Source: Bacteroidales bacterium (GTDB lineage: Bacteria; Bacteroidota; Bacteroidia; Bacteroidales; WCHB1-69). From it: DNA of 64,000 bases. The notes beneath the pieces are model-generated. The model saw nothing but the letters and a program-made list of their open reading frames with translations, searched no databases and was not told the DNA's origin. Position 1 is the stretch's first letter. The number at the start of each line of letters is the position of its first letter. The stretch is taken from the NCBI GenBank assembly GCA_045130235.1, contig JBGUPJ010000021.1, forward strand, positions 256,875 through 320,874, read 5' to 3'. Made by a program: the position numbers and the translations under genes. This document shows positions 11,001-50,454 of this stretch, in pieces.

Positions 11001-14000
11001 GATAATGGTTGTACCGCATACGATACGGCTGCTTTCGTGGTCGCAGACATTTACGCGCCCGTCATTTCGGGCATCATCCCGAACGACACCTTCGCTTGCC
11101 CGTCGGATATCCCAGTAGCCTTCAACTCGTTGAGCATGCTGACTCAAAACTTGTCGGGTGGCGATAATACCATCACCGACAATTGCAGCATTGGCGTTAT
11201 GTTGAGTATGACCATGTCGGAGACTACGGATATAGAAGGATGTAAGTACACCATTGTGCGTACTTATACGGTGTCGGATGCTTGCAATAATTCCTCTACC
11301 GTCACCCATACCATCATCGTCGAAGATACCATAGCACCTGTGGTGGTCGGCACGTTGAGTGATATGAATGTGACCTGTGTGGATGATGTTACGTCTGAGA
11401 TCTCAGACCTGAATACCTTGATCTCTACTTACAGACTTACAGTTTCTGACAACTGTTCGCCTCTTGGGGATTTGACTTTGGCGGCCACAACGGAAAACTT
11501 TACTGCTTTGTGTGGAGCCTCCTACATACGTACCTATACCATAACAGATACGTGCGGAAATTCTACAGATATTATTCAGAATATTATTTTTAATGATAAT
11601 ACTCCTCCAGTAGTTACTGGCACATTGCGTGATACTACCATCTATGCGGCAGCAGATTGTAGTTTCTCGAATGTGACAGCCTATGCAACTGTTTCAGATT
11701 TGGCTGTTGCTGGAGTGACCGTTACGGATTGTAATCTTGTGGATGAGATTACTTATGTTGATGATAATACCGATCCCATCGATGTGTGTGAGAAGATCAT
11801 CACTAGAACCTATACCATTACAGATAGCTGTAACAACTCCGTTGACATTTCACAGCAAATCCATGTGGTGGATACTATTTCTCCCGCTGTGGTGGATAAT
11901 CTTCGCGATACCAATGTATATTATATAGATGCGCAATGTCATTACAATGAGGTAGCTGTACTTAATATCACTGATTTCGAGGTTACTGATTGTAATGATG
12001 TGAATCTGACTGTGACGCATCGCGATACGGTGGGCGCTCCTGGCGACTGCGAATGGAGTTATGTGAGAGTCTATTCTTTCACCGACATCTGTAATAATGC
12101 TCCCACTATTTTGGAGCAGACCATTACGGTTCGGGATACAACTCGTCCGCAGGTGGTCGATAATTTGGAAGATACTATATTATATTATACAGGTAATGAA
12201 TGCGAATTGGATCCCTTCCCGCATCTGACTTTGTCGGATTTTGATGTGGAAGATTGTCGGTATGAAAATTTGCAATTCTCTGTTGTTGAACGAGATACTA
12301 CGAGTGGGGGAGAGGGTTGTGAATGGACTTACACTCGCGTTTATACCTTTGCAGATGATTGTAACAACACAACTGTTTCCATCGACCAGCTGATTACGGT
12401 GCGCGACACCACCCGTCCGGACATTGCTGGAACGCTGCCGGATACTACCATCTACCGTTTGGCCGACTGCACCTACGAGCTGCCCGCTAATCTGACCATT
12501 GCTGGGTTGGAGGCCGCCGGCCTGACCATCACCGACTGCAATTTGGACAACACTGTTGCCGTGAGCGACGCCAACTTGGTGGGCAACGACTGTAGTGCGA
12601 CAGTGGTAAGAACTTACACCATCTCTGACCTCTGCGGTAATTCCAACACCATCACCCAGAACATCATCATTGAAGATACTACCCGTCCGTATCTGACTGC
12701 CCCGATTGCCGATTCTCTCCTGACGGCTACCAATTGCGACTTTGTGGTGCCTGATTTCGTGACGATTGCCCGCACATTGGCGGTGGACAACTGTACGGCC
12801 ACGGCTAATATCGACATCCAGCAGTCGGAGGCTGCCGGCACGCCCGTCACCGATGCGATGGATGTGACCGTCACCCTCGAGGATGCCTGCGGTAACGACA
12901 CCAGCTACACCATCCATATCTCGCTGCCCGAAGAGCTGACGCTGACGCTTCATCAAGGCGACACCGCCATCTGCGAAGGCCAGAGCGTGACCCTGCCCAC
13001 CACTTTCACCGGTGGCGTGGCTCCCTATACGTACGAGTGGCAACCCACCAGCGGCCTTAATGTCGCTGATGCCGACACAGTTGTCGCCACTCCGGAAGAT
13101 GGTACTTATAACTATCAGGTGACCATCACCGATAACAACGGCTGTACCGCATCGCAAACGGTTACCGTTATTGTCGATACCCTGCCCGCAGAGCCTACGC
13201 TCACCCCCACACCCGATGTGGCTTGCCAAGGTGGCTCCAACGGTACTATCACTATCGAGGATCCTGTGGGAGCTGGCTACAGCTACTCGCTTAACGGTGC
13301 CGCTTTCCAGGATACTACGAATGTCTATTCGGGACTTTCAGCTAATAACTATACAGTTGTAGTACAATCCAATACGGTCAATGGTACCAACTGTCAGGCA
13401 ACCTCCACCATTGAGGTCGAAAGCTCGCCCACCAACCCGCGTGTCGCTATCGACTCTCTGGATGTTGACCTCCTGCTCTGTCCCAACCAGGGAACACAGG
13501 TGATTACCGCCCGTATTCTCAGCGGCACCGAGCCTTACGTGGTGGCTTGGACGGGTGCTACAGTTGACCCGGCCGACAGTCTGACGGCTACCGTCGCGGT
13601 GGATGCTGCCGCCTGCGATTCCGTTTATACGGTTTCCATTATGATTACTGATGGTAACGAGTGCGAGGCCTCCAGCGAGTATGCCTTCCGTATTGTGGAT
13701 ACGCTGGCTCCCGCCATCCATGGCGTGCTGGTGAACGACACCGTCGCTTGCCCCAACGATGTGCCCGCCCCGTATGCCGATCTGACCGCGCTGAATGCAG
13801 CCCTCGTCGGCAACGATGCCGGTATCGAGGATAGCTGTACCGCGTTCGCCAACTTGGTGATGACGATGGAAACTGCTGATTATACGCAGAGCTGTGATTA
13901 TCAAATTGTTAGAACTTATAATGTGGCCGATGAATGCGGTAATTCATCTTCCATTACCCATACCATCATCGTTCATGATACCATCGCACCTGTTATTACG

Positions 14001-17000
14001 GGTACGATTGATGCCGAGATGGTGGTTTGTGTGGCCGACTTCACCGATGCGGTTCAAACCGTGGATGACCTCTTGGCTCTGTTGCAGGGCGGTACCATCA
14101 CCGACAACTGCTGCGATGCCGAGCATCTTACCCTGACTTCTACCACAGATAACTTCACCTCCTACTGTAATGGAGATTATGTTAGAACTTATACTGTAAC
14201 AGATAGTTGTGGTAATTTTACCTCTATTGAACAGCATTTGATTGTCAATGATAATGTGAATCCTGTGATTGAAGGCACTTTGGCCGACATCACCATCTTT
14301 GCAGACTCTTCCTGCAACCATACCCTTCCCACCGCTTTCACCACTGTGACAGAATTGTCGGCCCAAGGTCTGACCATTACCGACTGCAATCTGGTGTCTG
14401 AAATTCAGTTTGCTGATGCAGATATGGTGGATTATGATGCTTGCAACACGTTGGTTGTCAGAACTTACACGGTATCCGACAGCTGCAACAATTCATCTAC
14501 CATCACGCAGAATATTTATATCCAAGATACCATTCATCCTTGGTTGAGCGAAATGATCGCCGACAGCTTGCTGACGGGTGTGAATTGTGAGTTTGTGGTT
14601 CCTGACTTTGTGGCGATTGCTGTTACTTTAGCGCAAGATAATTGTACGGCACAAGCCGACATCAATGTGGAACAGTCGCCTGCGGCTGGAACTTCTGCTG
14701 ACGCTGATGGTGATGTGACGATTACCTTGACCGATGTCTGTGGCTTGCAGACCACCTACACGGTCCATTACACGCTGCCCACGGAGCCCGTTCTGATGCT
14801 CCATCAGGGCGATACTGCTGTGTGCGAGGGACAGAGCGTGACGTTGCCCACTACGCTGGTGGATGGCACGGCTCCGTTTACCTACTCATGGACTCCGACT
14901 GCCGGTCTTAACGTCACCAATGCTGATACGGTGGTGGCCACTCCCGACAGAGGAACTTACACTTATACTGTGACAGTTACCGATGCCAACGGTTGTACTT
15001 CACAGGTTTCCGTAACCGTTGAGGTGGATACCATCCCCGCTACGCCTGTGATGACGCAAGAACCCAATGTGGCTTGCCACGGCGATGCCAATGGTTCAAT
15101 TACCATTACTCATCCTGTTGGAAACGGCTATAGCTACTCGCTGAATGGAGCTGATTTCCAGGATACTACGAATGTGTATAATGGTCTTATTCAAGGTCAA
15201 TATACGGTGGTGGTGATGACGGATGCGCAAGCAGCTTGCAAAGCCACGAATACCATTGAGGTGGAGAACTCACCGGCTATTCCGAGTGTGGCTATCGATA
15301 CGCTGCTGGTGGATCTTTGTCCCAACCAAGGAACACAGGAGGTGACTGCCCAGATTCTGAGTGGTCTTGCCCCGTATGTGGTAACTTGGGAGAATGCTAC
15401 GATGGATGCTACGGATAGTCTGTTGGCAACGGTTACCTTCGATGCTGCGGTTTGCGATTCCAACTACAGCGTCACGGTACGCATTGTAGATGGCAATGAA
15501 TGCGAAACTTATTCCAACTATGTCTTCCGCGTGGCCGACTCACTCGCTCCCGTGATGGCTGACTTTGTGGATACACTCCGTGTGGAGGGATGCGATGACT
15601 CTGCCGCTCCTGCTGTTTTGACTACGGAAGATGAGCTGGCGACCCTGGGCATGAGCTATACGGATGAATGTACGGCTGTCGGCAACTTTGCGGTAAGCTG
15701 CACCTCCGATACCGCTGGCACCTGTCCGATTGTCATCACCCGCTACTACACCGTGACCGACGAGTGCGGCCATGTGAGTAATCCGGCTATCCATAGAATT
15801 TTGATCGATGATGAAACGGCACCCGAGGTGACCGTGGCCGAGGTGATTGACACGCTCAACAGCTGCGGTGCGCAGAACGCTCCTGCCGCTGCCACCACGC
15901 CTGCCGAATTGCAAGCCATTGGCTTTGCTTTCTCAGACCTCTGCACTGCAACCGCAGACCTGACCCTCTCGCTCGTGGCCGACACGACCTCCGACGGCTG
16001 TACGGTTGAGATGAACCGTACCTATACCGTGACGGATGCTTGTGGAAACGAAAGTGCTGTGATGACGCATATCATCCGCATCCACGACAGCATCGCTCCG
16101 GTCATCAACAATGAGATTCCCGAGCTGACGCTTTACGGCTGCGATACCACTACGGTGTTGGCGGCTTACCCGCCGGCTACTACCGTGGCCGAGCTGCTCG
16201 CACTTGGCGGCATCTCCATCACGGAGGCTTGTACCCCGCAAGACGAAATAGTGGTTCATCATCGTGCCGACTCCACAGGTCTCTGCGAGATTGTGGTTAC
16301 CCGCACCTACTGGGTGGAAGACGCCTGCGGCAACCTCAGCAACGAGGTATCCCACGTGATTCGTATTCTGGATACATTCGCTCCTACTGTGAATGTGACA
16401 TTGTCTGATACGACTATCTATTATACCACCACCCATTGCGACTATGATGAAGTGGCAATACTGAGTCAGGATTATTTCAATGCGCAAGACTGCCATCAGG
16501 TGAATATGGAGGTGGTGCATCACGATACCGTTGGTGCGCCTGGCGACTGCGAATGGAGCTACATGCGTGACTACCGCTTCACCGATGAGTGTGGCAATGG
16601 ACCGGTCATCGTTTCACACCAAATCATGGTGAAAGATACGATGCGCCCGCAGGTGGTCGATGATTTGCGTGATACTATATTATATTTTGTGGGTAATGAC
16701 TGCACACTGCCCACTTATCCGAGATTGACGTTGAGCGACTTTAATGTAGAAGATTGTAGATATGACAATTTGCAATTCTCTGTCATTGAAAGAGATACAA
16801 CGAATAATGGCGAGGGCTGTGAATGGAGTTATACCCGAATTTACACTTTTGCTGACGATTGTAATAATACTTCCGTCAGCATTGACCAGCTGATTACCAT
16901 CCAAGACACTACCCGTCCGGCTATCGACGGCACCTTGCTCGACCTGACGGTTTACCGCTTGGAGGATTGCAGCTTTGTGCTGCCCGACACGCTCACCATT

Positions 17001-28624: not shown

Positions 28625-29085
28625 TGAAGAAAATCTTACTGGTTTGCCTATTGGCTTTAAGTGGAATAGTCTTTGTATCATGTCGATACAATGAAGGGCC
28701 ATGGATTAGTTTCATTAAGCCTGAAGAACGGCTGGTGGGCTATTGGAAGTTGGCCGATGTGTATTGTAATGGAACGAAAGTCGATTCCGCCACCGTGTTC
28801 GCCAATAAGGCGGGCAATTATTACGCCTTCTTCTTTGAGGGAATGGTGTCGGTTTCGGCATTGGATACCACGATGAACCGTTGGGAAGAGTCGGACTACG
28901 GTGGCTGGCAGTTCGAGAACCATTGCAAAGAAATCTATGTGACTTTCTCCCTCAAACATCGCAAATATGAATATACGGCTACCATCAAGCGCCTCACCCG
29001 CGACGACCTCATATATGAGTATAACGACAACAACGGCGACCTCTGGCGCTTAGAGTTCGAAAGCCGCTCCACCATGTATTATTAA
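28621..29085 (+). CDS. Small lipoprotein, lipocalin-like domain (paralogous architecture)
   Basis: The 154-aa product has a lipobox in 'GIVFVSC|R'. It carries 'VGYWKLADVY' and 'KRLTRDDLIYEY'. A 4-nt ATGA overlap links it to the preceding lipoprotein gene. Confidence 0.65.
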   Translation: MMKKILLVCLLALSGIVFVSCRYNEGPWISFIKPEERLVGYWKLADVYCNGTKVDSATVFANKAGNYYAFFFEGMVSVSALDTTMNRWEESDYGGWQFENHCKEIYVTFSLKHRKYEYTATIKRLTRDDLIYEYNDNNGDLWRLEFESRSTMYY

Positions 29086-29136
29086 CTATTTACTATAAAT
29101 TATTAATTATTAACTATTAACTATTAACTATTAACT
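29081..29136 (+). repeat. Heptanucleotide tandem array (ATTAACT)8 filling the whole intergenic spacer
   Basis: The units are ATTAACT ATTTACT ATAAATT ATTAATT, then four perfect ATTAACT. The first unit contains the upstream stop codon (29083-85). The last unit abuts the ATG at 29137. Confidence 0.9.
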
Positions 29137-31293
29137 ATGAAAAAAGTCCTCCTCCTCACCGCCCTTATGATGGTTCGTTTCTTCGCCATGGCCGACGAAG
29201 GAATGTGGATTCCGCTTTTCTTGGGCTACAATGAAGCCGAAATGCAGCAGATGGGATTTCATCTTACTGCCGATGACGTGTATAGTGTCAATCACCATAG
29301 CATGAAAGATGGTATCGTGCTGTTCGGTGGCGGCTGTACCGGCGAACTGATTTCGCCCGACGGTCTGCTTATCACCAACCACCACTGCGGCTACAGCTAC
29401 GTGCAGGCGCACAGCAGCATGGAACACAATTACTTGCATAATGGATTCTGGTCAAAGAATCGCGATGAGGAGCTGGTAACGAAGGGCTTGACCGTTACGT
29501 TCTTGGTCTATATGGAAGATGTCACCACGAAGGTGCTGGAGGGTGTGACGGACGGTATGAGCGAATCGGAGCGCAATTCCAAAATCAAGAAGAATATTAA
29601 TGCTATTGAGAATGAGGCCGTTGAAGGCACGCATTATACGGCAAAAATCAAACCCTTCTATTATGGCAATCAGTATTTTCTGTTTGTGAATGAGGTATTT
29701 GAGGATGTGCGCCTCGTGGGCGTTCCGCCCGAAAGCATCGGCAAGTTCGGTGGCGATACCGACAACTGGATGTGGCCCCGCCATACCGGCGACTTCTCCC
29801 TCTGGCGTATCTATACCGACAAGGACGGCAATCCCGCTCCCTATTCTCCCGACAATATTCCGCTCAAATCGAAGAAATATTTCCCCATCTCCATCAAAGG
29901 CGTGAATGAGGGCGACTTTACCCTCGTTTTCGGCTATCCGGGAACTACCCAGCAGTTTCTGATCTCCGATGCGGTGGATATCAAGGCCAACGTGCAGAAC
30001 CCCATCGCCATCCATGCCCGCGACCTGCGCCTCGAAGCCATGAAACGCCAGATGGAAAAATCCACCGAAATCCGTTTGATGTACTCCGCCAAATCCAACA
30101 GCATCAGCAATGGATGGAAAAAATGGATAGGGGAGAGCAAAGGTATCAATGAATGTAAAGTGGTGGAAAAGAAAATTGCTGAAGAACAGGAGTTTATGAA
30201 ATGGGTAAATGCCTCTCCTGAACGCCAGAAGCAGTACGGCAGTCTTCTTTCCGACATGAAAAAAGTGTATGTCGATTATAAAAAGCAGGTCAAGTCGTTC
30301 ACCTTCCTCAGCGAGACCTTTATCGGGGTGGAACTCAACCGCTTCCTCTGCACGCAGGTGCATTGGTTCGCCTCCTGCTGTCCGTCTGATGTGTGGACCG
30401 ATGAGCAGTTTGAGAAAGGCAAGACCGAGTTGGCCGAGAAAGCCCGCTCATTCTTTAGCAATTATAATGTAGATATTGATTCAGAGTGTTTTGTGGAACT
30501 GATGTATTATTATTTCTCAGAACAAGATCCCGAACTCATTCCCGAAGGTTTGCGCAAATATATCAACATGCCCAAGAGCGAGTGGCAGGCTTTCTTGGAT
30601 CGTGAAAAGAAGAAGGCTCCCTATCTTTTTGATGGTGAAAAAATGCAGGAGCGCATCCAGAAGGCCAAGCGCAAAGATTGGGTGAAATTTTTGGATGATG
30701 AACTCTATCAGCTCGTTATGATCGCTTATAAGGCGTATGCCCAGAGTTATTATGCGATGGATGATACGGAAAAGCAGCTGGATTTGTACTATCGCACCTA
30801 CGTAAAGGCTTTGATGGAAAAAGATACCGACAAGACCTTCTATCCCGATGCCAACCTCACCATGCGTGTCACTTACGGCAACGTGAAGGGCTTTGAGCCT
30901 AATGATGGCGTGCGTTATACCCATTACACCACCCTTGCCGGCGTGATTGCCAAGGACAACCCTGACATCTTCGACTACAAGGTGGATCCGAAGCTGAAGG
31001 AGTTGTTTGCCAAGCATGATTTCGGCCCGTATGCCAACGAAAAGGGCGAGCTGCCGGTATGTTTTATCGCCAGCAACCACACCACGGGCGGCAATTCCGG
31101 CAGTCCGGTCATCGATGCTGACGGCAACCTCATCGGTATCAATTTCGACCGTGTGTGGCAGGGCACTATGAGCGACATCAACTACGACGTGAACCGCTGC
31201 CGCAACATCTCCTTGGACGTGCGCTATTTCCTCTTCATCGTTGACAAGTTCGCCGGCGCGCAGAACATCATCGATGAGCTGGACATCCGGTAA
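29137..31293 (+). CDS. S46 family dipeptidyl-peptidase, DPP11-like
   Basis: The 718-aa product has a signal peptide followed by 'ADEGMWIP'. The His motif is 'LITNHHCGY' and the Ser motif is 'TTGGNSGSPVIDADGNLIGINFDR'. An Arg lies 18 residues after the catalytic Ser, as in DPP11; DPP7 has Gly there. Confidence 0.88.
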   Translation: MKKVLLLTALMMVRFFAMADEGMWIPLFLGYNEAEMQQMGFHLTADDVYSVNHHSMKDGIVLFGGGCTGELISPDGLLITNHHCGYSYVQAHSSMEHNYLHNGFWSKNRDEELVTKGLTVTFLVYMEDVTTKVLEGVTDGMSESERNSKIKKNINAIENEAVEGTHYTAKIKPFYYGNQYFLFVNEVFEDVRLVGVPPESIGKFGGDTDNWMWPRHTGDFSLWRIYTDKDGNPAPYSPDNIPLKSKKYFPISIKGVNEGDFTLVFGYPGTTQQFLISDAVDIKANVQNPIAIHARDLRLEAMKRQMEKSTEIRLMYSAKSNSISNGWKKWIGESKGINECKVVEKKIAEEQEFMKWVNASPERQKQYGSLLSDMKKVYVDYKKQVKSFTFLSETFIGVELNRFLCTQVHWFASCCPSDVWTDEQFEKGKTELAEKARSFFSNYNVDIDSECFVELMYYYFSEQDPELIPEGLRKYINMPKSEWQAFLDREKKKAPYLFDGEKMQERIQKAKRKDWVKFLDDELYQLVMIAYKAYAQSYYAMDDTEKQLDLYYRTYVKALMEKDTDKTFYPDANLTMRVTYGNVKGFEPNDGVRYTHYTTLAGVIAKDNPDIFDYKVDPKLKELFAKHDFGPYANEKGELPVCFIASNHTTGGNSGSPVIDADGNLIGINFDRVWQGTMSDINYDVNRCRNISLDVRYFLFIVDKFAGAQNIIDELDIR

Positions 31294-31319: not shown

Positions 31320-31360
31320 TCTCCGACGTGAAGTTCGTGAAGGGGGAGTGATTTTGCTTC

Positions 31361-31377
31361 GTGTGCCAAAGGCACAC
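31361..31377. terminator. Hairpin between convergent genes (possible bidirectional terminator)
   Basis: GTGTGCC-AAA-GGCACAC lies between the S46 gene stop (31293) and the ATPase gene stop (31434). Confidence 0.35.
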
Positions 31378-31433
31378 ACTCCTAGTAACCCCACTCAAAC
31401 GAAGTGTAATTAGACTCGTTGTTGAGGCCTGTC

Positions 31434-32684
31434 CTATCGGTCTATAACAGTTTCATCCGTAAGAAAATCAAACAGGCTGAGATTGAGAAAACCATTGTCG
31501 TCGTAATACGGAAGAATGGGGTCTTTTTGTACTAAAATTTTTTTGAAGGAGTCGTTGATATGCCGTAAGGACTTTGTCTCCTGTTGGCGCTTTTCCTCGT
31601 CATACAAAGCGTATGCGGATTGTATGTAGTATCGCTGGCTGCCTCTGTTGCACACGAAATCAACTTCAAATTGTTTTCTTTTCGATTTTCCGTCTTCCTT
31701 GCAGTTTACTTCCACCATTCCTACATCCACCGACATTTCCCTCATCCTGAGTTCGTTATAAATAACATTCTCCATAATGTGTCCGTAGTCGTTCTGCCGG
31801 AAGTTCAGTCGGGCATTACGCAGACCTACATCCACAAAATAGTACTTCATGGGCGTGCCGATATAGTGTCTGCCCCTCACATCATACCGTTGGACCTTTT
31901 CTATGAGAAATGCATCCTGCATATATTGCAGGTATGAGGCAACGGTATCGCGTGTTATGTGCATCTTTTTTTCAGAAATAAAGGTGTTGGTCAATGTCAG
32001 TGGATTGGTCAGAGTGCCGATGGTGGAGGCCACCACATTCATCAGTTCCTCCATTTCCTCATTGCCGCGCAGGTTATAGCGTGAAATGATGTCTTGGAAA
32101 TAAGTTTGAGAGAACAGGGCTTGCAGATAGGAGGCTTTTCGATTTTCACTGCTGATGGCCAGCAGTCCTGGCATACCTCCATAAACTTGGTAATTGTTCC
32201 ATGCTTCGGATTCAGTGCCGTCAAACACTGACAAAAATTCAGGAAACGAGAGGGGATACACCCTCACCTCATCGCCTCTGCCACGGAATTCAGTGATAAT
32301 GTCTGAGGAAAGAAATTTTGAATTGGACCCAGTGACGTAAGTGTCTGCATTGGGAATATGGAGGAAACCGTTCAGCAGGTATTCAAAGTTCTGCACAAGT
32401 TGGATTTCATCAAGAAGTATGTAGTACATGTCCTTGTCCACAATTCTGGCTCTGACATATTGGTTCAGATTGTCTGGGTTAAGATATTCTCTGTTTTGGT
32501 AATCGTCCAAAGCAAATGAGATGATATGGTCTTCTTGCACGCCCAGTTCCATCAGTTTGCGTTTGAACAGATTGAAAAGCAGATAGGACTTGCCGCATCT
32601 GCGCACCCCTGTGACAATCTTTATCAAGCCGTTGTTCCTGCGTTCCAGCAGGGATGAAATGTACCGTTCTCTTTTGGCTTCCAT
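31434..32684 (-). CDS. AAA+ ATPase with C-terminal DUF4143-like domain
   Basis: Walker A is 'GVRRCGKSYLL' and Walker B is 'YYILLDEIQ'. The N-terminus 'MEAKRERYISSLLERRNNGLIKIVTG' is typical of this family. I placed the start at Met12 of ORF 31434..32717 so that the -7 box at 32730 sits at a sensible distance. Confidence 0.8.
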   Translation of the reverse strand: MEAKRERYISSLLERRNNGLIKIVTGVRRCGKSYLLFNLFKRKLMELGVQEDHIISFALDDYQNREYLNPDNLNQYVRARIVDKDMYYILLDEIQLVQNFEYLLNGFLHIPNADTYVTGSNSKFLSSDIITEFRGRGDEVRVYPLSFPEFLSVFDGTESEAWNNYQVYGGMPGLLAISSENRKASYLQALFSQTYFQDIISRYNLRGNEEMEELMNVVASTIGTLTNPLTLTNTFISEKKMHITRDTVASYLQYMQDAFLIEKVQRYDVRGRHYIGTPMKYYFVDVGLRNARLNFRQNDYGHIMENVIYNELRMREMSVDVGMVEVNCKEDGKSKRKQFEVDFVCNRGSQRYYIQSAYALYDEEKRQQETKSLRHINDSFKKILVQKDPILPYYDDNGFLNLSLFDFLTDETVIDR

Positions 32685-32729
32685 AATTCTATTCGTTTTT
32701 TTTGCGTAAATACGCATTTTTTACGACTG

Positions 32730-32765: not shown

Positions 32766-32800
32766 TTTTCAATTTTCATTTTTCAATTCTCAATTCTCAA
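32766..32800 (+). repeat. Heptanucleotide tandem array, locus C
   Basis: The units are TTTTCAA TTTTCAT TTTTCAA TTCTCAA TTCTCAA. The shared module TTTATTCGTATCTTTGCACC follows directly. Confidence 0.9.
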
Positions 32801-32808
32801 TTTATTCG

Positions 32809-34889: not shown

Positions 34890-35290
34890 TTTTGCTATTT
34901 TAAGAAAAATTATACTTTTGCAACCTCATTACAAGCGAAACAGCTTCTACCGTTATTTAACTTCAAAATACTATGAAAGAGATGGATAAGAAACGAATTA
35001 CATCCCAAGATGAGTCGATTGTGCAACAAAATAAATTTTATTACCTTTTATATTAAAATAATACGTACTTTTGCCGTGTTATTTATAAACAAAAGGTAAA
35101 GCTGTGAGTCATTCGAAAATTATGCTTACACCAAGCGATCAAAGTCAGCAAGGCATGGAAGAACAGTATTGGCGGACATCTTCCGGCGGAACAGTTGCCG
35201 CAGTTTGATGACGTCATCCGTGATCTGAAACAATTCTGTGCTGATAGGGAATGGTAGGTTATAATGTAAATGACAATTGAAGTATCGCAA

Positions 35291-35318
35291 TTTTCAATTC
35301 TCAATTTTCATTTTTCAA
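35291..35318 (+). repeat. Heptanucleotide tandem array, locus D
   Basis: The units are TTTTCAA TTCTCAA TTTTCAT TTTTCAA. The shared module TTTATTCGTATTTTTGCACC follows directly. Confidence 0.9.
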
Positions 35319-35326
35319 TTTATTCG

Positions 35327-37367: not shown

Positions 37368-37403
37368 TTTTTCAATTTTCAATTTTCAGTTTTCAATTTT
37401 CAA
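37368..37403 (+). repeat. Heptanucleotide tandem array, locus E
   Basis: The units are TTTTTCAA TTTTCAA TTTTCAG TTTTCAA TTTTCAA. The array ends 17 nt from the murC stop codon (37421-23). Confidence 0.9.
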
Positions 37404-43961: not shown

Positions 43962-46246
43962 TGTCTCTGCACCGGAACTGGAAACAGGTGCTGCTGTACA
44001 GTCTGCTCTCCGCTTCCCTGGCGGTGGCGGGGGTGGCTGGATTGTGTCTGATCGGCAATTCTGTGGAGGGCAAAAAGTGGGAAGCGGCCACGGAAGATGT
44101 AGAGCTGATTCCCGACCAGAATGTGGACCTCGCCACAACGCAGGCCTACCTCCAGAAAGACACCCTCTATGCCGATTTCCGCAGCCATTTCCGGTTCCAT
44201 TACCAGACCATCGGCGAGGCGGCCTTCGACGACGGCAGCTGTTTGCTGCTCATCTCGGAGCCGCCTCCCTATTTCAATGCCGACACGATTGCGCAGATTT
44301 TCAGTCAGTTTACGCACTCCGTGGAGACTCGCAAGCATCCTGTCGGTTACGACGGCAAAATCACCGACCTGCTGATTGTGCTGGGCAACACCACCGAGCG
44401 CAACCGCACCCGTCTTACGAAAGAGCTTTCACAGGCTATTTATCTTTCTGATTATAAGCCGAATGTAACGCCGTTGCCGGTCGAACATGGCCGTTCTTAC
44501 TTCGTGGAGGACACCATCGACTACCAGATTACGTTGTACGAGTTCAACGACTGGTTCATGGAGAAAGGGGAGGAGTTTTTCCAGCTTTCCGACACGGCCC
44601 ACAAGGTGACCATTTCCGACATGTTTGAGCAGCAGCTTACTGGCGTGTATTTCAGCCGTGTGCCGGGTTTTGTGGCGTGGGCCATCTCCAAAAACCACGA
44701 CCTTTCGGAGCAGCTCAACCATATCCGGCAGTTCACCCTCGATGCCGACTTGGTGCTGGGTGGCTTGGCCGATTCTGCCACCTTGGTGGTGATAGGCCGC
44801 GAGAGGGTGGCGGCCCTCTACGAGCTGCCGCCGCTCAACGTGGAGTCGATCCTGCTGCTGGCTTCGGTCACCGAGAAGGAGCTGTCGCAGAGTCTGGATG
44901 TGAACGACCTGATGGCTGGCAAGATGAAAAACGGTCACGACTGGTGCCCCACTTTTTTGAGTAAAGAGCTGGAAAACACCGAGTTCGGCCATCTGCTTAC
45001 TATCACCGATGTGCTTTTGAAAGACTGGTCGGAGAACGGCACTATACAGGAGGCCTACTACCGCTACCCGTCGCCGCCCCGTTTTCCATTCGATAGACCG
45101 CTGTTCAAGAAGCTGGGACTGAACGAGTTGGTGTACAATTGGAACACCTGGAATGCCATGTATGCCATCGACATGGACGAGGGTTTTACCATCTATACGT
45201 TGAATAGAACCGGCTCATTACCAGTATCTTATTTCAATTCGCCTGAAAGAAGTGTTTCCATTGGTTACCGATATGAAAATCAGGCATACCAGTATTTCGC
45301 TACTTTAGGGAATACGGATTTGGCGCGGGTGGTGCAATATACCGCTTTGTATCAGTTGTTTATGGATAATGGTGTGACTTATTCGGGGGATGTGGGCAAT
45401 GCCTTTCCCGAACAGAAACCCTATCTTTTGTACCAGCCTACCCGAAACCTGTTGGATTTTTTTAAGAATCTGAACGACCAGCAGATGGACTGGCTGGCCG
45501 ACACAATCTCTGCCATCAATTATTCTTCTTATCAGAAAGGACAGGTTACCAATGCTTTAGCTAAAAATGAAAGAACCTACCGCTTCACTTATTCCGATCA
45601 GCAGCGTAAAGAGATTTATGAGCGTGTGGCTAAAGATGAACGCAATGCGTTGCGGTCGGAAATCAGTGGGGTGCGTTCTATGCTGAAAGCGCTGAGTGAT
45701 GAGGAGTATACGAAGTTGGCGCGGTATTTGGCCTATCCCCGTGGCATGCGGAAGTCGGGCAGTGTCGCCTACCAGTTGGTGCAGCGGGCCCAGAAGGTCA
45801 ACCACCTGGTGCGCCGCATTGGCAAGAATCATCTCTCGGTGGTGGGACTTGACCTCAGCACGGTGCGCAACTTCTATGTCGGCAGTTTGGCCAACGCCTC
45901 CGCGCGGTATCTGAAAACACCTTCTGTCATAGTGACTTACAACGATATGTTGACCACCGGCGGGCACAACCTGTCGTCGGGCATCACGCGGGTGAACTCC
46001 TTGACGGGTTACAAGCGCAGCGGTGGACGGGGCTATTATGCGCCACAGCCGTCATCGCCTTCAGCGCCGGCCAAACCGTCGGCTCCCAAGGCGCAGTCGC
46101 CCTCTGGAGGCGGGAAGAGTTCCGCTTCATCGTCCTCATCCTCATCGGCGAAAAAGCCATCGTCCTCGGCGGCCAAGTCCCCGCAGAACATCCGTCCCCG
46201 CGGGGAGGTGATCTCCACCGCCGCCCGCAGCCAGCGAGGTTTTTAA
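43961..46246 (+). CDS. Hypothetical membrane-anchored protein (761 aa) with Ser/Pro/Lys-rich disordered tail
   Basis: The ATG at 43961 overlaps the pepE TAA by one nt (TAATG). There is one N-terminal TM helix, 'VLLYSLLSASLAVAGVAGLCLIG'. A ~650-aa domain follows in which I recognise no motif. The tail is 'PQPSSPSAPAKPSAPKAQSPSGGGKSSASSSSSSSAKKPSSSAAKSP'. Confidence 0.7.
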   Translation: MSLHRNWKQVLLYSLLSASLAVAGVAGLCLIGNSVEGKKWEAATEDVELIPDQNVDLATTQAYLQKDTLYADFRSHFRFHYQTIGEAAFDDGSCLLLISEPPPYFNADTIAQIFSQFTHSVETRKHPVGYDGKITDLLIVLGNTTERNRTRLTKELSQAIYLSDYKPNVTPLPVEHGRSYFVEDTIDYQITLYEFNDWFMEKGEEFFQLSDTAHKVTISDMFEQQLTGVYFSRVPGFVAWAISKNHDLSEQLNHIRQFTLDADLVLGGLADSATLVVIGRERVAALYELPPLNVESILLLASVTEKELSQSLDVNDLMAGKMKNGHDWCPTFLSKELENTEFGHLLTITDVLLKDWSENGTIQEAYYRYPSPPRFPFDRPLFKKLGLNELVYNWNTWNAMYAIDMDEGFTIYTLNRTGSLPVSYFNSPERSVSIGYRYENQAYQYFATLGNTDLARVVQYTALYQLFMDNGVTYSGDVGNAFPEQKPYLLYQPTRNLLDFFKNLNDQQMDWLADTISAINYSSYQKGQVTNALAKNERTYRFTYSDQQRKEIYERVAKDERNALRSEISGVRSMLKALSDEEYTKLARYLAYPRGMRKSGSVAYQLVQRAQKVNHLVRRIGKNHLSVVGLDLSTVRNFYVGSLANASARYLKTPSVIVTYNDMLTTGGHNLSSGITRVNSLTGYKRSGGRGYYAPQPSSPSAPAKPSAPKAQSPSGGGKSSASSSSSSSAKKPSSSAAKSPQNIRPRGEVISTAARSQRGF

Positions 46247-46328
46247 TTGTGGTTATACATTTTTTGGGGGGGGAGGTGTTGAGTATAGCTGTGGTGTGTT
46301 GGCGATCGTTGTCGTAACTATTTTCTTT

Positions 46329-46478
46329 GTCCCCGTCCCGAAGGGACGATATCTTATTAACCCCAGATAAGGCCGTTAGGCCGCAATCTGGGGTAGGGAT
46401 GCACTCGTGCATCCCACCGCGGCACGCTGACAGGAGCATAGTACCTGACGGCGGGTATGCCGCGGAAGAACGGGGCAG
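46329..46478 (+). repeat. GC-rich multi-hairpin repeat element, copy L
   Basis: Four consecutive hairpins are present. These are CGTCCC-GAA-GGGACG (46334-48), CCCCAGAT...ATCTGGGG (46361-93, with inner GGCC-GTTA-GGCC), GGGATGCAC-TC-GTGCATCCC (46396-415) and CCGCGGCA...TGCCGCGG (46417-65). Both flanks are homologous to copy R in inverted orientation. Confidence 0.8.
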
Positions 46479-46491
46479 CGATGTGAATTTG

Positions 46492-47364
46492 TCAGACGCA
46501 AACCTCAATGAGTTCCGCCAACGTGTTGTATATTTTCTCGTTCTTTGACCAAAAGTATTCACTTAGCTTTTCAAGAACCTTTCTCTCAGGGAAAATAATT
46601 GGAAAGATTTTTTGACGAATTTCCAAGTTATTCAATAATTTTCGATAGATACATGGTGACAGATCCTTGATTTCATCAAAAACAGCTTCTGCATTAGCGT
46701 CAAAGTTTACTTCTGGCATATCAGGCAAAGTTGTTTTCCATTTTTCTAAATAGTGCAAAGTCTCTTTCCAAATTTCATCATTAAAATCTGCTATACCATT
46801 GATATCACCAAACATTTGCCCACCATAATATAACCTCGGTTCACACCCATAGTCCTTTGACATACTTTTCATCCTTTCTAAGTAGTATCTTTTGTTCTTT
46901 TCAAGAGAATCATCGATGAACCACATTATTGGTATGATGTTGAAGTCATGGAAACGCCTAGTCAAAGCATAGTATTTATTCTCGAAATTATCAAACTGCC
47001 CAGCTTTTTTCGTGCTATCATGATCATCCCTGACCTTTTGTTCTATCATATACAAAGTGTTGTCTTTGCTGAAAAGTTGGTCAATGCTTAATTCTGTATT
47101 GTCATCAGTCCGAAATCTTTTTATATGTAATTGAAATCCAGTTTCTTCAAAATATCGCTCAAAAAGAAATTCGAGGGCATCACCAAAACGGATTTCATGG
47201 GATTGTGTGATATTTTGGATGAGTTTAGTCTTGGGTTTGGTGGGACGAAACAAACCGATGTATCTTTCTGGATAATCGGCTATTTTTTTAATAAGATCAC
47301 TGTAACTATCTTCAAAAAGCTTTGTATTAAGTGTATTTTTGAAGTATTCATATTCCAATATCAT
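46492..47364 (-). CDS. Putative type II restriction endonuclease (partner of the CcrM/HinfI-like methyltransferase)
   Basis: The 290-aa ORF has a 4-nt ATGA overlap with the upstream methyltransferase gene and shares its AT-rich composition. A candidate PD-(D/E)xK core is 'SIDQLFSKDNTLYMIEQKV'. I cannot assign a family by eye. Confidence 0.55.
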   Translation of the reverse strand: MILEYEYFKNTLNTKLFEDSYSDLIKKIADYPERYIGLFRPTKPKTKLIQNITQSHEIRFGDALEFLFERYFEETGFQLHIKRFRTDDNTELSIDQLFSKDNTLYMIEQKVRDDHDSTKKAGQFDNFENKYYALTRRFHDFNIIPIMWFIDDSLEKNKRYYLERMKSMSKDYGCEPRLYYGGQMFGDINGIADFNDEIWKETLHYLEKWKTTLPDMPEVNFDANAEAVFDEIKDLSPCIYRKLLNNLEIRQKIFPIIFPERKVLEKLSEYFWSKNEKIYNTLAELIEVCV

Positions 47365-48446
47365 TTTGTGCCTCCTTTCTCGTTAGCCAAGTATCTAAGC
47401 GAGTCTATTGCCACAAATTCATTATTATAGTCGCACCAAAAATAATCCCACCCATTGTTGTTGCTCCGATTCAACAATTTTGCCGATGCTTTGTGTATGG
47501 ATGTTTCAACACCATCTATTATCACATTTCCGCTTTCACACACTATAACATAATGCTTTTTGTCTTTGCTGAAAAGTCGTTGACCTATTTGTAAATATCC
47601 TAATTCCAACAGTTTTTTTATGGATATTCGTGGTGGTTTTACATCATATGCATTGTTAATCAAATCTGGAGTTAAATCCAGTTGGATGCTATTAATGCGT
47701 TCTTTTGCAGCTTTGATATATAGAACCTCCCGTTCAATCCCTATAAAATGTCTGTCTAAGCGTTTAGCGACAGCACCAGTTGTGCCTGTTCCGAAGAAGG
47801 GGTCTAATATCAAATCTCCCCTTTGTGTAGATGATAAGATAACATTATATAGCAGTTGCTCTGGTTTTTGTGTTGAATGGATTTTTTTGCCATTCTTGTC
47901 TTTTAACCGCTCGTTCCCTATGCAAATTCCTAAATCCCAAACACTTTTCATTTGTTTGTTCCCATTCAGGAATTTCATGGTTTTATAATTAAAGTGGTAT
48001 TTTGCTCCTTTGTTTTTGGAACACCAAATCAAAGTTTCGTGAGAATTTTGAAATCTTGTTCCACCAAAATTCGGCACAGCGTTAGGTTTCGACCATATCA
48101 CATCATTCAAGATCCAAAAGCCGATATCCTGCATGATATAGCCCAGTCTAAAGATATTTTGAAAGGAACCGATAACCCATATTGAAGCATCAGGCTTCAT
48201 TACTCTATGACATTCAGTTAACCACTGTTTTGTAAAAAAGTCGTATTCTTGGAGACTTGAAAATTTATCCCATACATCATCCACCCCATTGAATGAAGAA
48301 CCATCAGTGCGTAATAATTCGCCTTCAGTTTGCATATTGTATGGTGGGTCGGCGAATATTAAATCTACAGAGTTAGATGGGATTTTTTTCAAAACCTCAA
48401 GGCAATCACCTTGCAAGATAGTGTCTTTCTTTATTTCTTTTGGCAT
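47361..48446 (-). CDS. Beta-class N6-adenine DNA methyltransferase, CcrM / M.HinfI-like (predicted GANTC)
   Basis: The 361-aa product has motif IV 'IFADPPYN' ahead of motif I 'ILDPFFGTGTTGAVA'. It also carries 'WVIGSFQNIFRLGYIMQDIGFWILNDVIWSKPNAVPNFGGTRFQNSHETLIWCSK'. It is collinear with Caulobacter CcrM as I remember it, including the C-terminal ~90-aa extension. Confidence 0.85.
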   Translation of the reverse strand: MPKEIKKDTILQGDCLEVLKKIPSNSVDLIFADPPYNMQTEGELLRTDGSSFNGVDDVWDKFSSLQEYDFFTKQWLTECHRVMKPDASIWVIGSFQNIFRLGYIMQDIGFWILNDVIWSKPNAVPNFGGTRFQNSHETLIWCSKNKGAKYHFNYKTMKFLNGNKQMKSVWDLGICIGNERLKDKNGKKIHSTQKPEQLLYNVILSSTQRGDLILDPFFGTGTTGAVAKRLDRHFIGIEREVLYIKAAKERINSIQLDLTPDLINNAYDVKPPRISIKKLLELGYLQIGQRLFSKDKKHYVIVCESGNVIIDGVETSIHKASAKLLNRSNNNGWDYFWCDYNNEFVAIDSLRYLANEKGGTK

Positions 48447-48787
48447 AACTACTTGTTTTTAAGCGCTATGCCATCTTTCCAATTCAACTACTACGACCAA
48501 ATAAAAACTGCGGGCAAACTTGCTCGCAGTGTGGCCGTAGGAAATGCCAAAAGAAAGACAAGCCGCCCGCATACACGGGGCGCTGCTTTTGCATCTTTCT
48601 TTGCATATTCATGAAATTTCCTACGTTTCACTGCGAATAGACAAATAGCAAACGCTATGTTATATGATGTTGATTTATTTTATCTTTCTGTGATTTAGTG
48701 TTTTAGTTGTAAAAATATAAATTATTAATTCAATGCAAAAGTACATAAAAAATCTAATATATAGAAATAATTCACCATCTTCTATCC

Positions 48788-48985
48788 CTCCGCCGGTTCT
48801 TCCGCGGCACATTTCCCGACAGATACTATCTTCCTGCCAGTGTGCCGCGGTGGGCGCCTTCGACAAGCTCGGGCGCCGCGGTGGTTGAGCTTGTCGCGGT
48901 GGTTGAGCTTGTCGCGGTGGTTGAGCTTGTCGAAACCACCGCATGGTCTGGGGTTACGATAATGTCGTCCCTCTGGGCCGAGCAC
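48788..48985 (-). repeat. GC-rich multi-hairpin repeat element, copy R (inverted relative to L)
   Basis: The reverse complement of 48790-48853 aligns with 46413-46475 at about 52 of 62 identical positions by hand. It includes a 10-bp stem, CCGCGGCACA...TGTGCCGCGG (48802-50). The reverse complement of 48943-48973 aligns with 46337-46367 (agggacga...aaccccaga). The central core differs and carries an 18-bp x3 tandem repeat. Confidence 0.8.
48877..48930. repeat. 18-bp perfect tandem repeat x3 (CGCGGTGGTTGAGCTTGT)
   Basis: There are three identical units with no spacers. They are self-complementary with flanking GACAAGCTC (48862-70) and AACCACCGC (48934-42), which allows alternative hairpins. 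Confidence 0.9.
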
Positions 48986-49090
48986 AATATTCCATCACTA
49001 CATGAAAAAGAGAATCTTCCATGATTTTTTTTGAAAAAAAATAGAGAATGTGGAATTTTGGATGCTATTCTCCATTTCATAAAATATGCG

Positions 49091-49098
49091 TACCTTTG
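49091..49098 (+). promoter_or_regulatory. Bacteroides-type -7 box (TACCTTTG) for the TPR gene
   Basis: Exact TAnnTTTG match 19 nt upstream of the ATG at 49117. Confidence 0.5.
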
Positions 49099-49116: not shown

Positions 49117-50454
49117 ATGAAAAAACTCTCCATATTCCTGCTGCTGTTGGTTCTGTGCGTGGTCGCATATCCGCAAAAAACGAAGAAAAATGCGGAACCT
49201 ACTGCCACCGACCGTATGGTCTCCACTTTTTATGCCAATGCATTAAGAAGTTATTATACTGGAAATTACGAAGCGGCAGAACGCACTTTCAGAAGTGTGT
49301 TGTCCACCAATCCTTCGCACGATGCCACCTATTATATGCTGGGCAAAATGAAGGCGGAATTGGAAAAATATGTCGAGGCAGAAGAGAATCTGCGCAAAGC
49401 ATGCCAGCTCAACAAGTCGAACATTTGGTACTGGCAGACGTTGGCTCAGGTGCTGGATGATCAAGGGAAATATGCCGAGTCGTCCAAAGTTTGGAAGCAG
49501 GTGTGCCAGATGAGTCCCACCGATGAGCAGTTTTTGCTGTCGTATGCCAATGCGTTGTGGAATACGGGCAACGCCAAGGAATTGTTCAAAGTGCTGGATC
49601 AGGTCGAAGTGTTAGTCGGTGTGACAGAGCAGATTACGCAGGCAAAAGTGGAGATTCTTTTGTTTAAGAATGATGTAAAAGGTGCAGTGGGCGTTTATGA
49701 TAAGCTTATAAAAAAATATCCCAATACGGCTGATTATTATGTGAATGCGGCTGAATTGTACATGAACAATTCTATGACAGAGAAGGCCATCCCTTATCTG
49801 GAGGAGGCTGCCCGCATTGATGCCACCAACGGCAATGTGCAGTCGATGCTGGCCGTATATTATATGCGGATTGGCAATGAGCAGGCCGCTTTCGAGGCCT
49901 CCAAGGCCGCTATGCTTTCACCCGATGTGGAGTTGGACAAAAAGTTGTCTATCCTGCGCATCTATCTCGCCCCCCTCTCCACCTCCGACCCTACCGACCA
50001 GCAGATGCAGCTTGCCACTGCCCTTATCACCGCCAACCCGGAAGCAGTGGAGGGATGGGCCTCCCGCGCCTCCATCCTCCTGCGACAGAAAAAGTATCAG
50101 GAGGCCGTGCCCGATTTTGAGACCGCCCTCTCCATTGATCCATCGCAATATGCTCTGTGGAAGGATTTTATGTACTGCCTCGCCCGCGCCAAGAACTATA
50201 CCCGCATCATTGAACTGGAGAAAGATATTGTGGAGATTTTCCCCACCAACGGCATGATGAACTACACTTTGGGCAGCGCCTATATGAACACGGGCAAACC
50301 TGAAAAGGCCGTTCCTTATTTCGAAAAGGCGTTGAAATACACCTACGATAAAGAGGAACAGCGTCACATTTATAACTCATTAGAAGAGGCATACGAGGTG
50401 TTGGGCAATAGCGAGAAGGCCGCCGAGTATCGTCAGAAAGGTGGCAAGAATTAG
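49117..50454 (+). CDS. Tetratricopeptide-repeat protein, secreted
   Basis: The signal peptide is 'MKKLSIFLLLLVLCVVAYPQ'. Repeated 34-aa TPR-like units follow (for example 'YYTGNYEAAERTFRSVLSTNPSHDATYYMLGKMK'). I trimmed the start from 49048. Confidence 0.8.
   Translation: MKKLSIFLLLLVLCVVAYPQKTKKNAEPTATDRMVSTFYANALRSYYTGNYEAAERTFRSVLSTNPSHDATYYMLGKMKAELEKYVEAEENLRKACQLNKSNIWYWQTLAQVLDDQGKYAESSKVWKQVCQMSPTDEQFLLSYANALWNTGNAKELFKVLDQVEVLVGVTEQITQAKVEILLFKNDVKGAVGVYDKLIKKYPNTADYYVNAAELYMNNSMTEKAIPYLEEAARIDATNGNVQSMLAVYYMRIGNEQAAFEASKAAMLSPDVELDKKLSILRIYLAPLSTSDPTDQQMQLATALITANPEAVEGWASRASILLRQKKYQEAVPDFETALSIDPSQYALWKDFMYCLARAKNYTRIIELEKDIVEIFPTNGMMNYTLGSAYMNTGKPEKAVPYFEKALKYTYDKEEQRHIYNSLEEAYEVLGNSEKAAEYRQKGGKN

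Follow-up and report, generated by a model that had tools for sequence, protein, structure and literature searches.

Does a restriction-modification (RM) cassette that lies between two inverted copies of a hairpin-rich element travel with those copies, or is the bracket a property of the place in which the cassette landed? The question is raised by a stretch of 64,000 nucleotides (hereafter the window) from an assembly labeled Bacteroidales bacterium (GCA_045130235.1; contig JBGUPJ010000021.1, forward-strand positions 256,875 to 320,874), in which a self-contained type II RM operon (46490..48711, minus strand; ∼35% GC) is flanked by copy L (46327..46490, plus strand) and copy R (48772..48987, minus strand) of a multi-hairpin element. 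A first-pass annotation, made from the sequence alone, offered three explanations: that inverted repeats bound a mobile cassette, that insertion took place in a hotspot of elements like repetitive extragenic palindromic (REP) sequences or miniature inverted-repeat transposable elements (MITEs), or that structured RNAs control the cassette. We favor the second with modest confidence. Copies L and R are probably resident mosaic hairpin repeats, and the cassette a self-contained unit that landed in a strain-variable hotspot between their convergent tails.

The inverted similarity of copies L and R is real and far above chance. A repeat search of the window recovered two inverted arms, one of 62 nt (46413-46474 versus 48793-48854; 81% complementary) and one of 50 nt (46327-46376 versus 48938-48987; 72% complementary), and pairwise alignment gave two conserved blocks with dissimilar cores between them. 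The longer arm has 50 of 62 positions matching, slightly below the ∼52 of 62 first counted by hand. Strings common to both copies occur at only these two sites in 64 kb, against a chance expectation of 0-0.4, and a covariance model (CM R1, described below) matches copy R, which was outside its training set, at E = 1.7e-16 (78 bits). As the first-pass annotation had noted, the copies stand at compositional boundaries: GC content falls from ∼0.60 to ∼0.34 at 46480 and climbs back at ∼48785. Because both tails run on to ...GATG(G)TGAATT, the limits of the copies were widened to those given above.

Copy L is predicted to fold into four consecutive hairpins, P1 to P4 (minimum free energy of -86.6 kcal/mol; z = -7.5), and the fold reproduces as P2 and P3 the hairpins earlier drawn at 46361-93 and 46396-415. 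In order along the plus strand are P1 (46334-46348; CGTCCC-GAA-GGGACG), a linker (46349-46359), P2 (46360-46393), which encloses GGCC-GTTA-GGCC, P3 (46396-46415), P4 (46417-46468; CCGCGGCA...TGCCGCGG, the exact pattern shared with at least 55 copies in other genomes), and the tail (46469-46490; AAGAACGGGGCAGCGATGTGAATTTG). CM R1, for which copy L was in the training set, scores it at 150.9 bits (E = 1.6e-33). Copy R is a chimeric member with a weaker fold (z = -3.3). On the minus strand it has a P1-like hairpin (48980-48966), TAACCCCAGA without a 3' partner (48956-48947), a replacement module, P4 (48853-48802), and a tail (48801-48772). The 3' half of P2 is lost and in its place is the replacement module, which is present in one other member (L111; labels of this form denote comparison loci from other assemblies). 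As first described, therefore, each copy has a different core, and that of copy R includes an exact 18-nt tandem repeat (48877-48932; 3.1 copies at 100% by Tandem Repeats Finder) whose unit is present three times in copy R and once in L111.

Both copies are members of a many-copy, structured, intergenic repeat family of uncultured rumen Bacteroidales. A scan of 185,579 species-representative genomes with the P4 pattern CCGCGGCAC-N29-35-TGCCGCGGAAG returned at least 113 loci. With the exact 32-nt spacer there were at least 56 matches outside the window's strain, all in rumen Bacteroidales and in at least 11 metagenome-assembled genomes (MAGs), which are labeled 'Bacteroidales bacterium', derive from cattle, yak, sheep, buffalo, and Tibetan ruminants, and have several matches each. 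Matches in Actinobacteria and other phyla were set aside as chance, having different spacings and no further similarity. CM R1, built from 36 copies in other genomes plus copy L, found 62 matches in 51 fetched Bacteroidales loci; counts reached at least 14 in one of the MAGs and at least 12 in another. The architecture that the copies share upstream of the P4 pattern consists of sequence not used in finding them.

The family core is ∼155 nt long and runs P1, linker, P2, P3, P4, tail; we call the P1 end its head. P1 is a hairpin of 6-7 bp whose stem has at least seven different sequences and whose loop is mostly C-GNA-G, the linker is conserved (AATCTCAGTAAC), the P2 stem (CCCCAGAC/GTCTGGGG) encloses a variable hairpin, P3 is variable, and the tail reads AAGAAC-GGGCGGG-N-GGATAGA-NGGTGAA. 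The interior of P4 contains GATAG and is taken to be sequence-conserved because mutual information shows no clean Watson-Crick covariation there; a second variant of the family differs in this interior. About half of the copies, those of the window not among them, have a conserved 5' extension of ∼330 nt composed of further, also covarying, hairpin modules, which brings the full element to as much as ∼500 nt. In variant-2 copies a -7 box, TAT[GA]TTTG, lies immediately before the first module, and tandem core-extension-core arrangements occur. Examples of the extension are at 1400-1700 in L015, 2430-2640 in L054, 3060-3300 in L083, and ∼20 other loci; its modules include a TTCATTTTCTTTGC..GCAAAGAAAATGAA hairpin, AAAAGAAATGCGCTTTGCCGCTGTGCAAATT, a covarying GATGAGC..GCTCATC hairpin, and CGATTTCTTCACGCCTCCATTTGCAAGGCGGC, and its module B contains CCGTTCTTC, complementary to GAAGAACGG of the tail.

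Stems of the family covary strongly. RNAalifold detects compensatory changes in 14 of 25 pairs. In a 63-sequence alignment, 98.1% of cells are paired versus 82.6% in shuffled alignments (0 of 500 shuffles), and 32-59% when partners are slid. Double changes number 217 cells, all in P1 and P2, and involve 17 of the 25 pairs. The outer stem of P4 is invariant in a set that was ascertained by the P4 pattern, and two divergent copies in L142 have compensatory variants of it (CCGCGGTG...CACCGCGG and CGCGGCG...CGCCGCG). A pseudoknot between the P1-P2 linker region (J1/2) and P4, considered by eye from UCAGU and GCUGA, was set aside; its apparent covariation tracks subfamilies, not base pairing. In a strand test on the CM-fitted alignment, GU pairs exceeded AC pairs 22 to 12, which is not significant (p = 0.12), so selection at the level of RNA and of single-stranded DNA are indistinguishable, and the covariation is equally compatible with hairpins of either kind.

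The statement that no described element has this architecture holds across Rfam 15, phage and plasmid collections, and a full-text search. Nothing in the window or 17 related loci reached an Rfam gathering threshold, and only chance-level hits were present at E <= 10, among them a weak naRNA4/REP-like one that scored 19.6 bits against a cutoff of 59.5. A scan for tRNA and transfer-messenger RNA found none, a distant blastn search of the plasmid collection with copy L gave no match, two scans of viral contigs gave a single off-spacing chance match, and neither the characteristic strings of the family nor REP-like elements in Bacteroidales were found in the full-text literature. No recurrent partner emerged when open reading frames (ORFs) within 3.5 kb on either side of 57 copies were clustered, transposase, TnpB, and IscB included. 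Likewise, no transposase, integrase, or reverse transcriptase recurs near copies, no 8-kb flank contains a transposase, and no RAYT/Y1 HUH gene is present among 98 flanking ORFs or the clustered ones. Omega-RNA, bridge-RNA, group II intron, and retron identities were dropped because of this lack of a recurrent partner ORF. The AAA_14/DUF4143 protein of the window was also considered as a common partner and rejected, since tblastn gave distant hits only, none adjoining a copy. We regard the family as a variation on known kinds of intergenic repeat, one that has not been described before, covaries strongly, and is unusually elaborate.

Every copy lies between genes, and the flanking genes show the four possible orientations with equal frequency (++ 11, +- 13, -+ 10, -- 12), which argues against a role as a 5' leader or dedicated 3' untranslated region (UTR). 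About 50 of the 62 are solo; pairs may be convergent, divergent, or tandem, and inverted doublets include an overlapping tail-to-tail one in L030 and others in L119 and L026. Some copies are conserved at orthologous positions across species. At two orthologous pairs of loci (L001/L083 and L050/L085), P4 and the tail are kept and P1-P3 differ. Given these differences and the location of copies at synteny breakpoints, we regard the family as mosaic, with members that exchange parts.

Within this family, copies L and R are not close to each other. They are 56% identical at positions not fixed by the search pattern, the P4 interior of copy L is 89% identical to that of copies in other MAGs, and in that interior copy R ranks 40th of 56 among the relatives of copy L. 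The two belong to different subfamilies, are not each other's closest relatives, and do not stem from a recent duplication.

The RM cassette is independent of the repeat element. On the minus strand, it comprises a restriction gene of the HpyAIV family (R gene; 46492-47364; NCBIfam restrict_HpyAIV equivalog, 254 bits versus a cutoff of 160), for which the family predicts GANTC specificity, and a CcrM/M.HinfI-like N6-adenine methylase gene with a RAMA domain (M gene; 47361-48446; NCBIfam CcrM-type model, Pfam N6_N4_Mtase and RAMA). A leader and promoter region (48447-48711) precedes them, and a Bacteroidetes-type -7 box, TACTTTTG, lies upstream of the M gene at 48743-48736. Downstream of the box is a leader hairpin of ∼150 nt (48500..48660; TCGCAGTG-AAA-CGTAGGAAAT ... 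ATTTCCTACG-GCCA-CACTGCGA), nearly invariant in the window and in L142, L144, and L145, whose cassettes are only 79% identical overall to that of the window. Alignment with these three loci is confined to 48711/48687-46490, that is, from promoter and leader to the stop codon of the R gene; copy L begins 2 nt beyond and copy R ∼60-75 nt beyond. Searches with CM R1 found no family element in L144 or L145. Two copies of the element are present in L142, one of them antisense and 169 nt beyond the R gene on its downstream side. None was found in 11 further loci with RM homologues (L148-L158; at least five contexts), which are mostly defense islands with HEPN/NTase, Bro-N, RhuM, AAA_14/DUF4143, or Thoeris genes. 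In all, the cassette is present in at least six contexts besides the window, most of which lack the element. Because homology spans 48711-46490 only, and because the cassette occurs without the element elsewhere, we conclude that it is an independent unit.

Two features of these cassettes are of separate interest. The leader hairpin (L142, 3715-3880; L144, 1105-1270; L018, 6950-7065), for which Rfam gave no match, may regulate the establishment of RM at the level of RNA; in L018, a variant with a compensatory inner stem stands ahead of an unrelated small lipoprotein ORF. In L154, L155, and L157, from other Bacteroidales, the homologous HpyAIV-type RM cassette is directly downstream of a pyruvate:ferredoxin oxidoreductase gene and beside Thoeris-like ThsB-TIR or Fic/HATPase genes, apparently a different, conserved defense hotspot.

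The site that holds the cassette in the window is strain-variable. On the head side of copy L is a core gene, P761 (43961..46246, plus strand), which encodes 761 amino acids, belongs to no Pfam or NCBIfam family, and has its stop codon 88 nt before P1. On the head side of copy R is a core gene for a TPR lipoprotein (49117..50454, plus strand) with its own -7 box (TACCTTTG, 49091-49098); no record was found for the exact protein. In two contigs of sister strains (L115 and L116), in which P761 is 97% identical in amino acids, homology with the window ends at 46239 and resumes at 49068. The intervening strain-specific segment of the window (46240..49067; 2.83 kb) consists of 80 nt, copy L, the RM cassette, copy R, and 80 nt, and is replaced in the sister strains by 6.7 kb with different genes. 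In L115 this cargo (8436-15130) encodes a Schlafen/AlbA_2-HATPase_c_4-HTH ATPase, a protein of 1,157 amino acids sorted by the type IX secretion system, and an ORF6N protein, and includes a cluster of four other GC-rich hairpin modules (13930-14130 of L115), which are also present upstream of P1 in several family copies. In a more distant relative (L119), the P761 orthologue is followed by two convergent P4-less copies 35 nt apart and no cargo.

Direct copies of a ∼30-nt module, TTTTTTTGACGTTTTTTTCATCAAGG, flank the doublet in L119 (4350-4400 and 4728-4757); these may represent either one long target duplication or a further kind of repeat module, and the same module also precedes P1 in L013 and L042. 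In the window, no direct repeat suggestive of target duplication is evident at 46240-46330 or 48985-49067. Switching of the RM genes by inversion across copies L and R was considered and rejected: the cassette has its own promoter, the arms are 72-81% alike, and the sole other assembly of the window's strain (L114) has the same orientation.

Neighbors of the family are asymmetric in a suggestive way. Defense or accessory genes adjoin the tail side in 14 of 55 cases versus 4 of 49 on the head side (Fisher p = 0.036, uncorrected for orthology); the counts are small and partly non-independent. Tail-side neighbors are RhuM (four cases), AAA_14/DUF4143 (three), NERD, ORF6N, GmrSD-HNH, and HsdR, plus those of the window, and head-side neighbors are mostly housekeeping genes (LeuRS, TruB, nfo, PhoH, S1, and dUTPase). 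A small excess of GC upstream over downstream of copies (0.47 vs. 0.43, p = 0.018) is confounded by conserved 5' modules and was set aside. A third, truncated member in the window (31355..31420, plus strand; CM E = 4e-4) retains P1 (GTGTGCC-AAA-GGCACAC) and half of P2 (AGTAACCCCAC), has a Peptidase S46 gene on its head side, and stops at the 3' end of a convergent gene (31434-32717, minus strand). That gene had been predicted beforehand to be accessory, and Pfam assigns it to the AAA_14/DUF4143 ATPases. The first-pass annotation had set its proposal against an abundant REP that has neither a link to accessory genes nor structural covariation; what was found is an abundant dispersed repeat, but one with strong covariation and a suggestive accessory link.

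The head-to-tail layout recurs around other accessory genes. Read on the cargo strand, L018 has the order of the window: a sense copy is followed by ∼100 nt that contain a -7 box, then by a long leader hairpin related to that of the window and by an AT-rich ORF, and an antisense copy comes shortly past the stop codon. A RhuM gene lies between two copies in L087 and ends 13 nt from a tail in L036, L110, and L020. The RhuM segments beside the tail in L020 (19-474) and L036 (1381-1836) are 98.7% identical and the surrounding backbone 88%, which suggests a recent exchange of the segment between these MAGs; in ruminal_MAG_106, a truncated RhuM gene lies between two direct copies of the element.

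Insertion into a hotspot of dispersed repeats is therefore the explanation we favor, given the dispersed multi-copy family and the strain-variable interval between P761 and the TPR gene. Copies L and R would be independent resident members of a lineage-specific, mosaic, multi-hairpin intergenic repeat family. The RM unit, with its promoter, 150-nt leader hairpin, and M and R genes, would move horizontally on its own and would have landed between two core genes, in the gap between the tails of two convergent repeats. The bracket would then belong to the place where the cassette landed and not to the cassette itself. The repeats may make their sites prone to recombination by supplying portable homology, by mosaic exchange, and through cruciform-prone tail-to-tail doublets such as those of L030 and L119, and foreign DNA would therefore tend to settle on their tail side. 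The hairpins might also insulate or terminate transcription between flanking core genes and cargo.

Several points weigh against this explanation. It presumes an order of events in which the repeats came first and the cassette second, and no clean empty site was found among the compared loci, the sister strains having a replaced segment. Enrichment on the tail side is modest, and orthologous loci inflate it; counted as roughly independent events, it is ∼11 versus 4. Convergent pairs that bracket cargo number only two (the window and L018), and convergent orientation has a prior of 1 in 4. The antisense copy downstream of the related RM cassette in L142 could mean more than chance. Lastly, near-universal perfect stems and compensatory differences between paralogues exceed the needs of a passive recombination substrate, and conservation of the stems points to a sequence-specific function at the level of RNA or single-stranded DNA.

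To a further alternative we assign a small but appreciable probability. The family, conserved across many rumen Bacteroidales species, might be a selected and previously undescribed class of structured nucleic acids whose tail docks or recombines defense and accessory cassettes, with dispersed members that are attC-like or targeted by a single-strand recombinase and that form no arrays, or else a new multi-copy large non-coding RNA; the RM bracket would be one visible product. Candidate docked cargo would be the HpyAIV RM, RhuM, GmrSD, NERD, and AAA_14/DUF4143 genes. Like an integron attC site, the element has a conserved fold and variable sequence, is located right after the 3' end of an accessory ORF, and often has defense genes as cargo. 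Unlike attC sites, copies do not form co-oriented arrays, no integrase was found, and there is neither an R''/L''-L'/R' architecture nor a GTTRRRY core. Furthermore, the cargo here has its own promoter (-7 box) and the elements are mostly solo beside core genes.

It is unlikely that the elements arrived after the cassette, as an active non-autonomous mobile element (e.g., single-stranded DNA hairpins handled by an HUH or tyrosine enzyme) that was added to each side independently and prefers gene 3' ends or the borders of new AT-rich DNA. In many copies (∼10) a convergent gene does end only 10-30 nt away from the tail, copies L and R are in different subfamilies, and within-genome diversity of copies is as expected from several master lineages. 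The P1 loops are mostly C-GNA-G triloops, which form very stable DNA mini-hairpins. However, the flanks lack a transposase, RAYT, or recombinase, the copies have no terminal repeats, and a polymorphism of filled versus empty sites was not seen for any single copy. Copies are also old, as their conservation at orthologous positions across species indicates, and the truncated ones (31355 in the window, L119, and the minus-strand copy of L030) look as if cut by cargo rather than inserted beside it.

We similarly doubt that the family represents a structured non-coding RNA gene, present in many copies and up to ∼500 nt long, with copies L and R as RNA genes or pseudogenes that merely neighbor the cassette. 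The very strong covariation, which extends to the hairpins of the 5' extension, the conserved single-stranded AAUCUCAGUAAC, GAUAG, and GGAAGAAC, the -7 box just upstream of the first module in variant-2 copies, and the excess of GU over AC pairs are what such a gene would show. But that excess is the nonsignificant one drawn from a CM-fitted alignment, the window copies have neither the extension nor an evident promoter, there is no orientation bias relative to neighbors, and no Rfam family matches. Modules are also freely swapped, duplicated, and truncated, an unusual trait in an RNA whose fold is defined.

A composite or non-autonomous transposon, with copies L and R serving as long terminal inverted repeats and a transposase moving the RM unit in trans, has a published precedent and is nevertheless distinctly improbable. 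RM genes are often flanked by repeats, and 'transposon-like' RM units flanked by long inverted repeats were defined after high-copy repeats had been excluded, some with 8-bp target duplications and empty sites (Furuta, Abe and Kobayashi 2010; PMC2853133). In the window, as in those units, long and imperfect inverted repeats flank a type II RM pair whose GC content is low relative to the host. The copies converge so that each points its tail at the cargo, the gap from one tail to the other is exactly filled by the cassette, the entire 2.83-kb segment is strain-specific, and L018 has the same architecture with different cargo. Against a transposon, each of the two copies is closer to copies in other genomes than to its 56%-identical partner, copy R is chimeric, and most members are solo. 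Single copies lack terminal inverted repeats; in 34 of them, the 5' 55 nt scored 5.76 against the reverse-complemented 3' 55 nt, versus a shuffled mean of 5.75. The RM cassette occurs in many contexts without repeats (L144, L145, and the 11 further loci), and its homology ends at the stop codon of the R gene, ∼75 nt short of copy R at the other end. The variable segment reaches 80 nt past each repeat, no target duplication is visible, and no transposase is present in any 8-kb flank. Near-identical flanking copies, terminal inverted repeats, and a recurring L-cargo-R unit, as in a MITE or composite transposon, are absent. In the scheme of the cited study, with repeats from a family of at least 62 copies in at least 11 MAGs and a cassette that moves without them, the window RM fits the class 'insertion between repeated sequences' rather than the transposon-like class.

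That the copies are cis-acting control RNAs, copy R as the RM leader and copy L as the 3' UTR of the RM genes or P761, is very improbable and for copy R largely refuted: copy L does lie 10 nt past the stop codon of the R gene and 88 nt after that of P761, and P1 followed by AUAUCUUAUU has a terminator-like score on the plus strand, but copy R is upstream of the RM -7 box and so outside the RM transcript, the true conserved leader is the hairpin at 48500-48660 between copy R and the M gene, most contexts of RM homologues are free of the element, and the family flanks unrelated genes in every orientation. Both the transposon and the control-RNA explanations are contradicted by the features tested.

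In kind, the family resembles REP/BIME, ERIC, BOX, and especially the NIME and Correia elements of Neisseria. NIME/dRS3 and Correia elements are dispersed, intergenic, mosaic, and strain-variable, occur at synteny breaks and beside accessory genes, and are thought to promote recombination with incoming DNA. Our family is likewise dispersed, intergenic, mosaic, and different between strains, at synteny breaks and beside accessory genes. It has no sequence relation to the Neisseria elements, belongs to another phylum, and has a covarying four-helix core of 155 nt; whereas 20-bp dRS3 or 26-bp terminal inverted repeats bound the Neisseria repeat units, it lacks terminal inverted repeats and has no visible TA target duplication. 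Like REP/BIME (REPIN) sequences, it is extragenic, palindromic, and multi-copy (at least a dozen copies in each of the two MAGs noted above), with compensatory stems and sometimes inverted doublets (here L030, L119, and L026). A REP is defined by a single imperfect palindrome of ∼20-40 nt with a GTAG head. In contrast, the element described here is five to ten times longer, has several hairpins (four helices in a ∼155-nt core) and a conserved linker, has no GTAG head, forms doublets in a minority of cases, and has no Y1/RAYT gene in the flanks examined. With pneumococcal BOX (boxA-(boxB)n-boxC), it shares modularity, a variable count of an internal unit, strong predicted structure, and intergenic location, but sequence and host are unrelated, its conserved core is far larger, and it has an optional 330-nt 5' extension.

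The window also contains repeats of other kinds. Tandem 7-nt repeats (AATTTTC, TTTTCAA, or TATTAAC; 5-9 copies), apparently intergenic, are at 115-175, 1361-1407, 29080-29138, 32766-32803, 35288-35321, and 37369-37403. At 8176-9070 are GGC/GGT-rich tandem repeats of 9 nt and 3 nt, probably a Gly-rich coding repeat. The contig of L114 (10825-10946; Logan SRR25030085) stops inside the 18-nt repeat of copy R. Repeats of the family break short-read assemblies, which matters for the quality of MAGs.

The analysis removes an attractive reading of this locus: the RM genes are not carried by a transposon bounded by inverted repeats, and the flanking hairpins are not regulators of the RM genes. What it adds is an undescribed, strongly covarying, and modular repeat family in uncultured rumen Bacteroidales, located at synteny breaks. 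If the tail-side asymmetry holds genome-wide, the family would mark integration hotspots of defense genes in a major gut and rumen lineage and would offer a handle on how defense hotspots are built.

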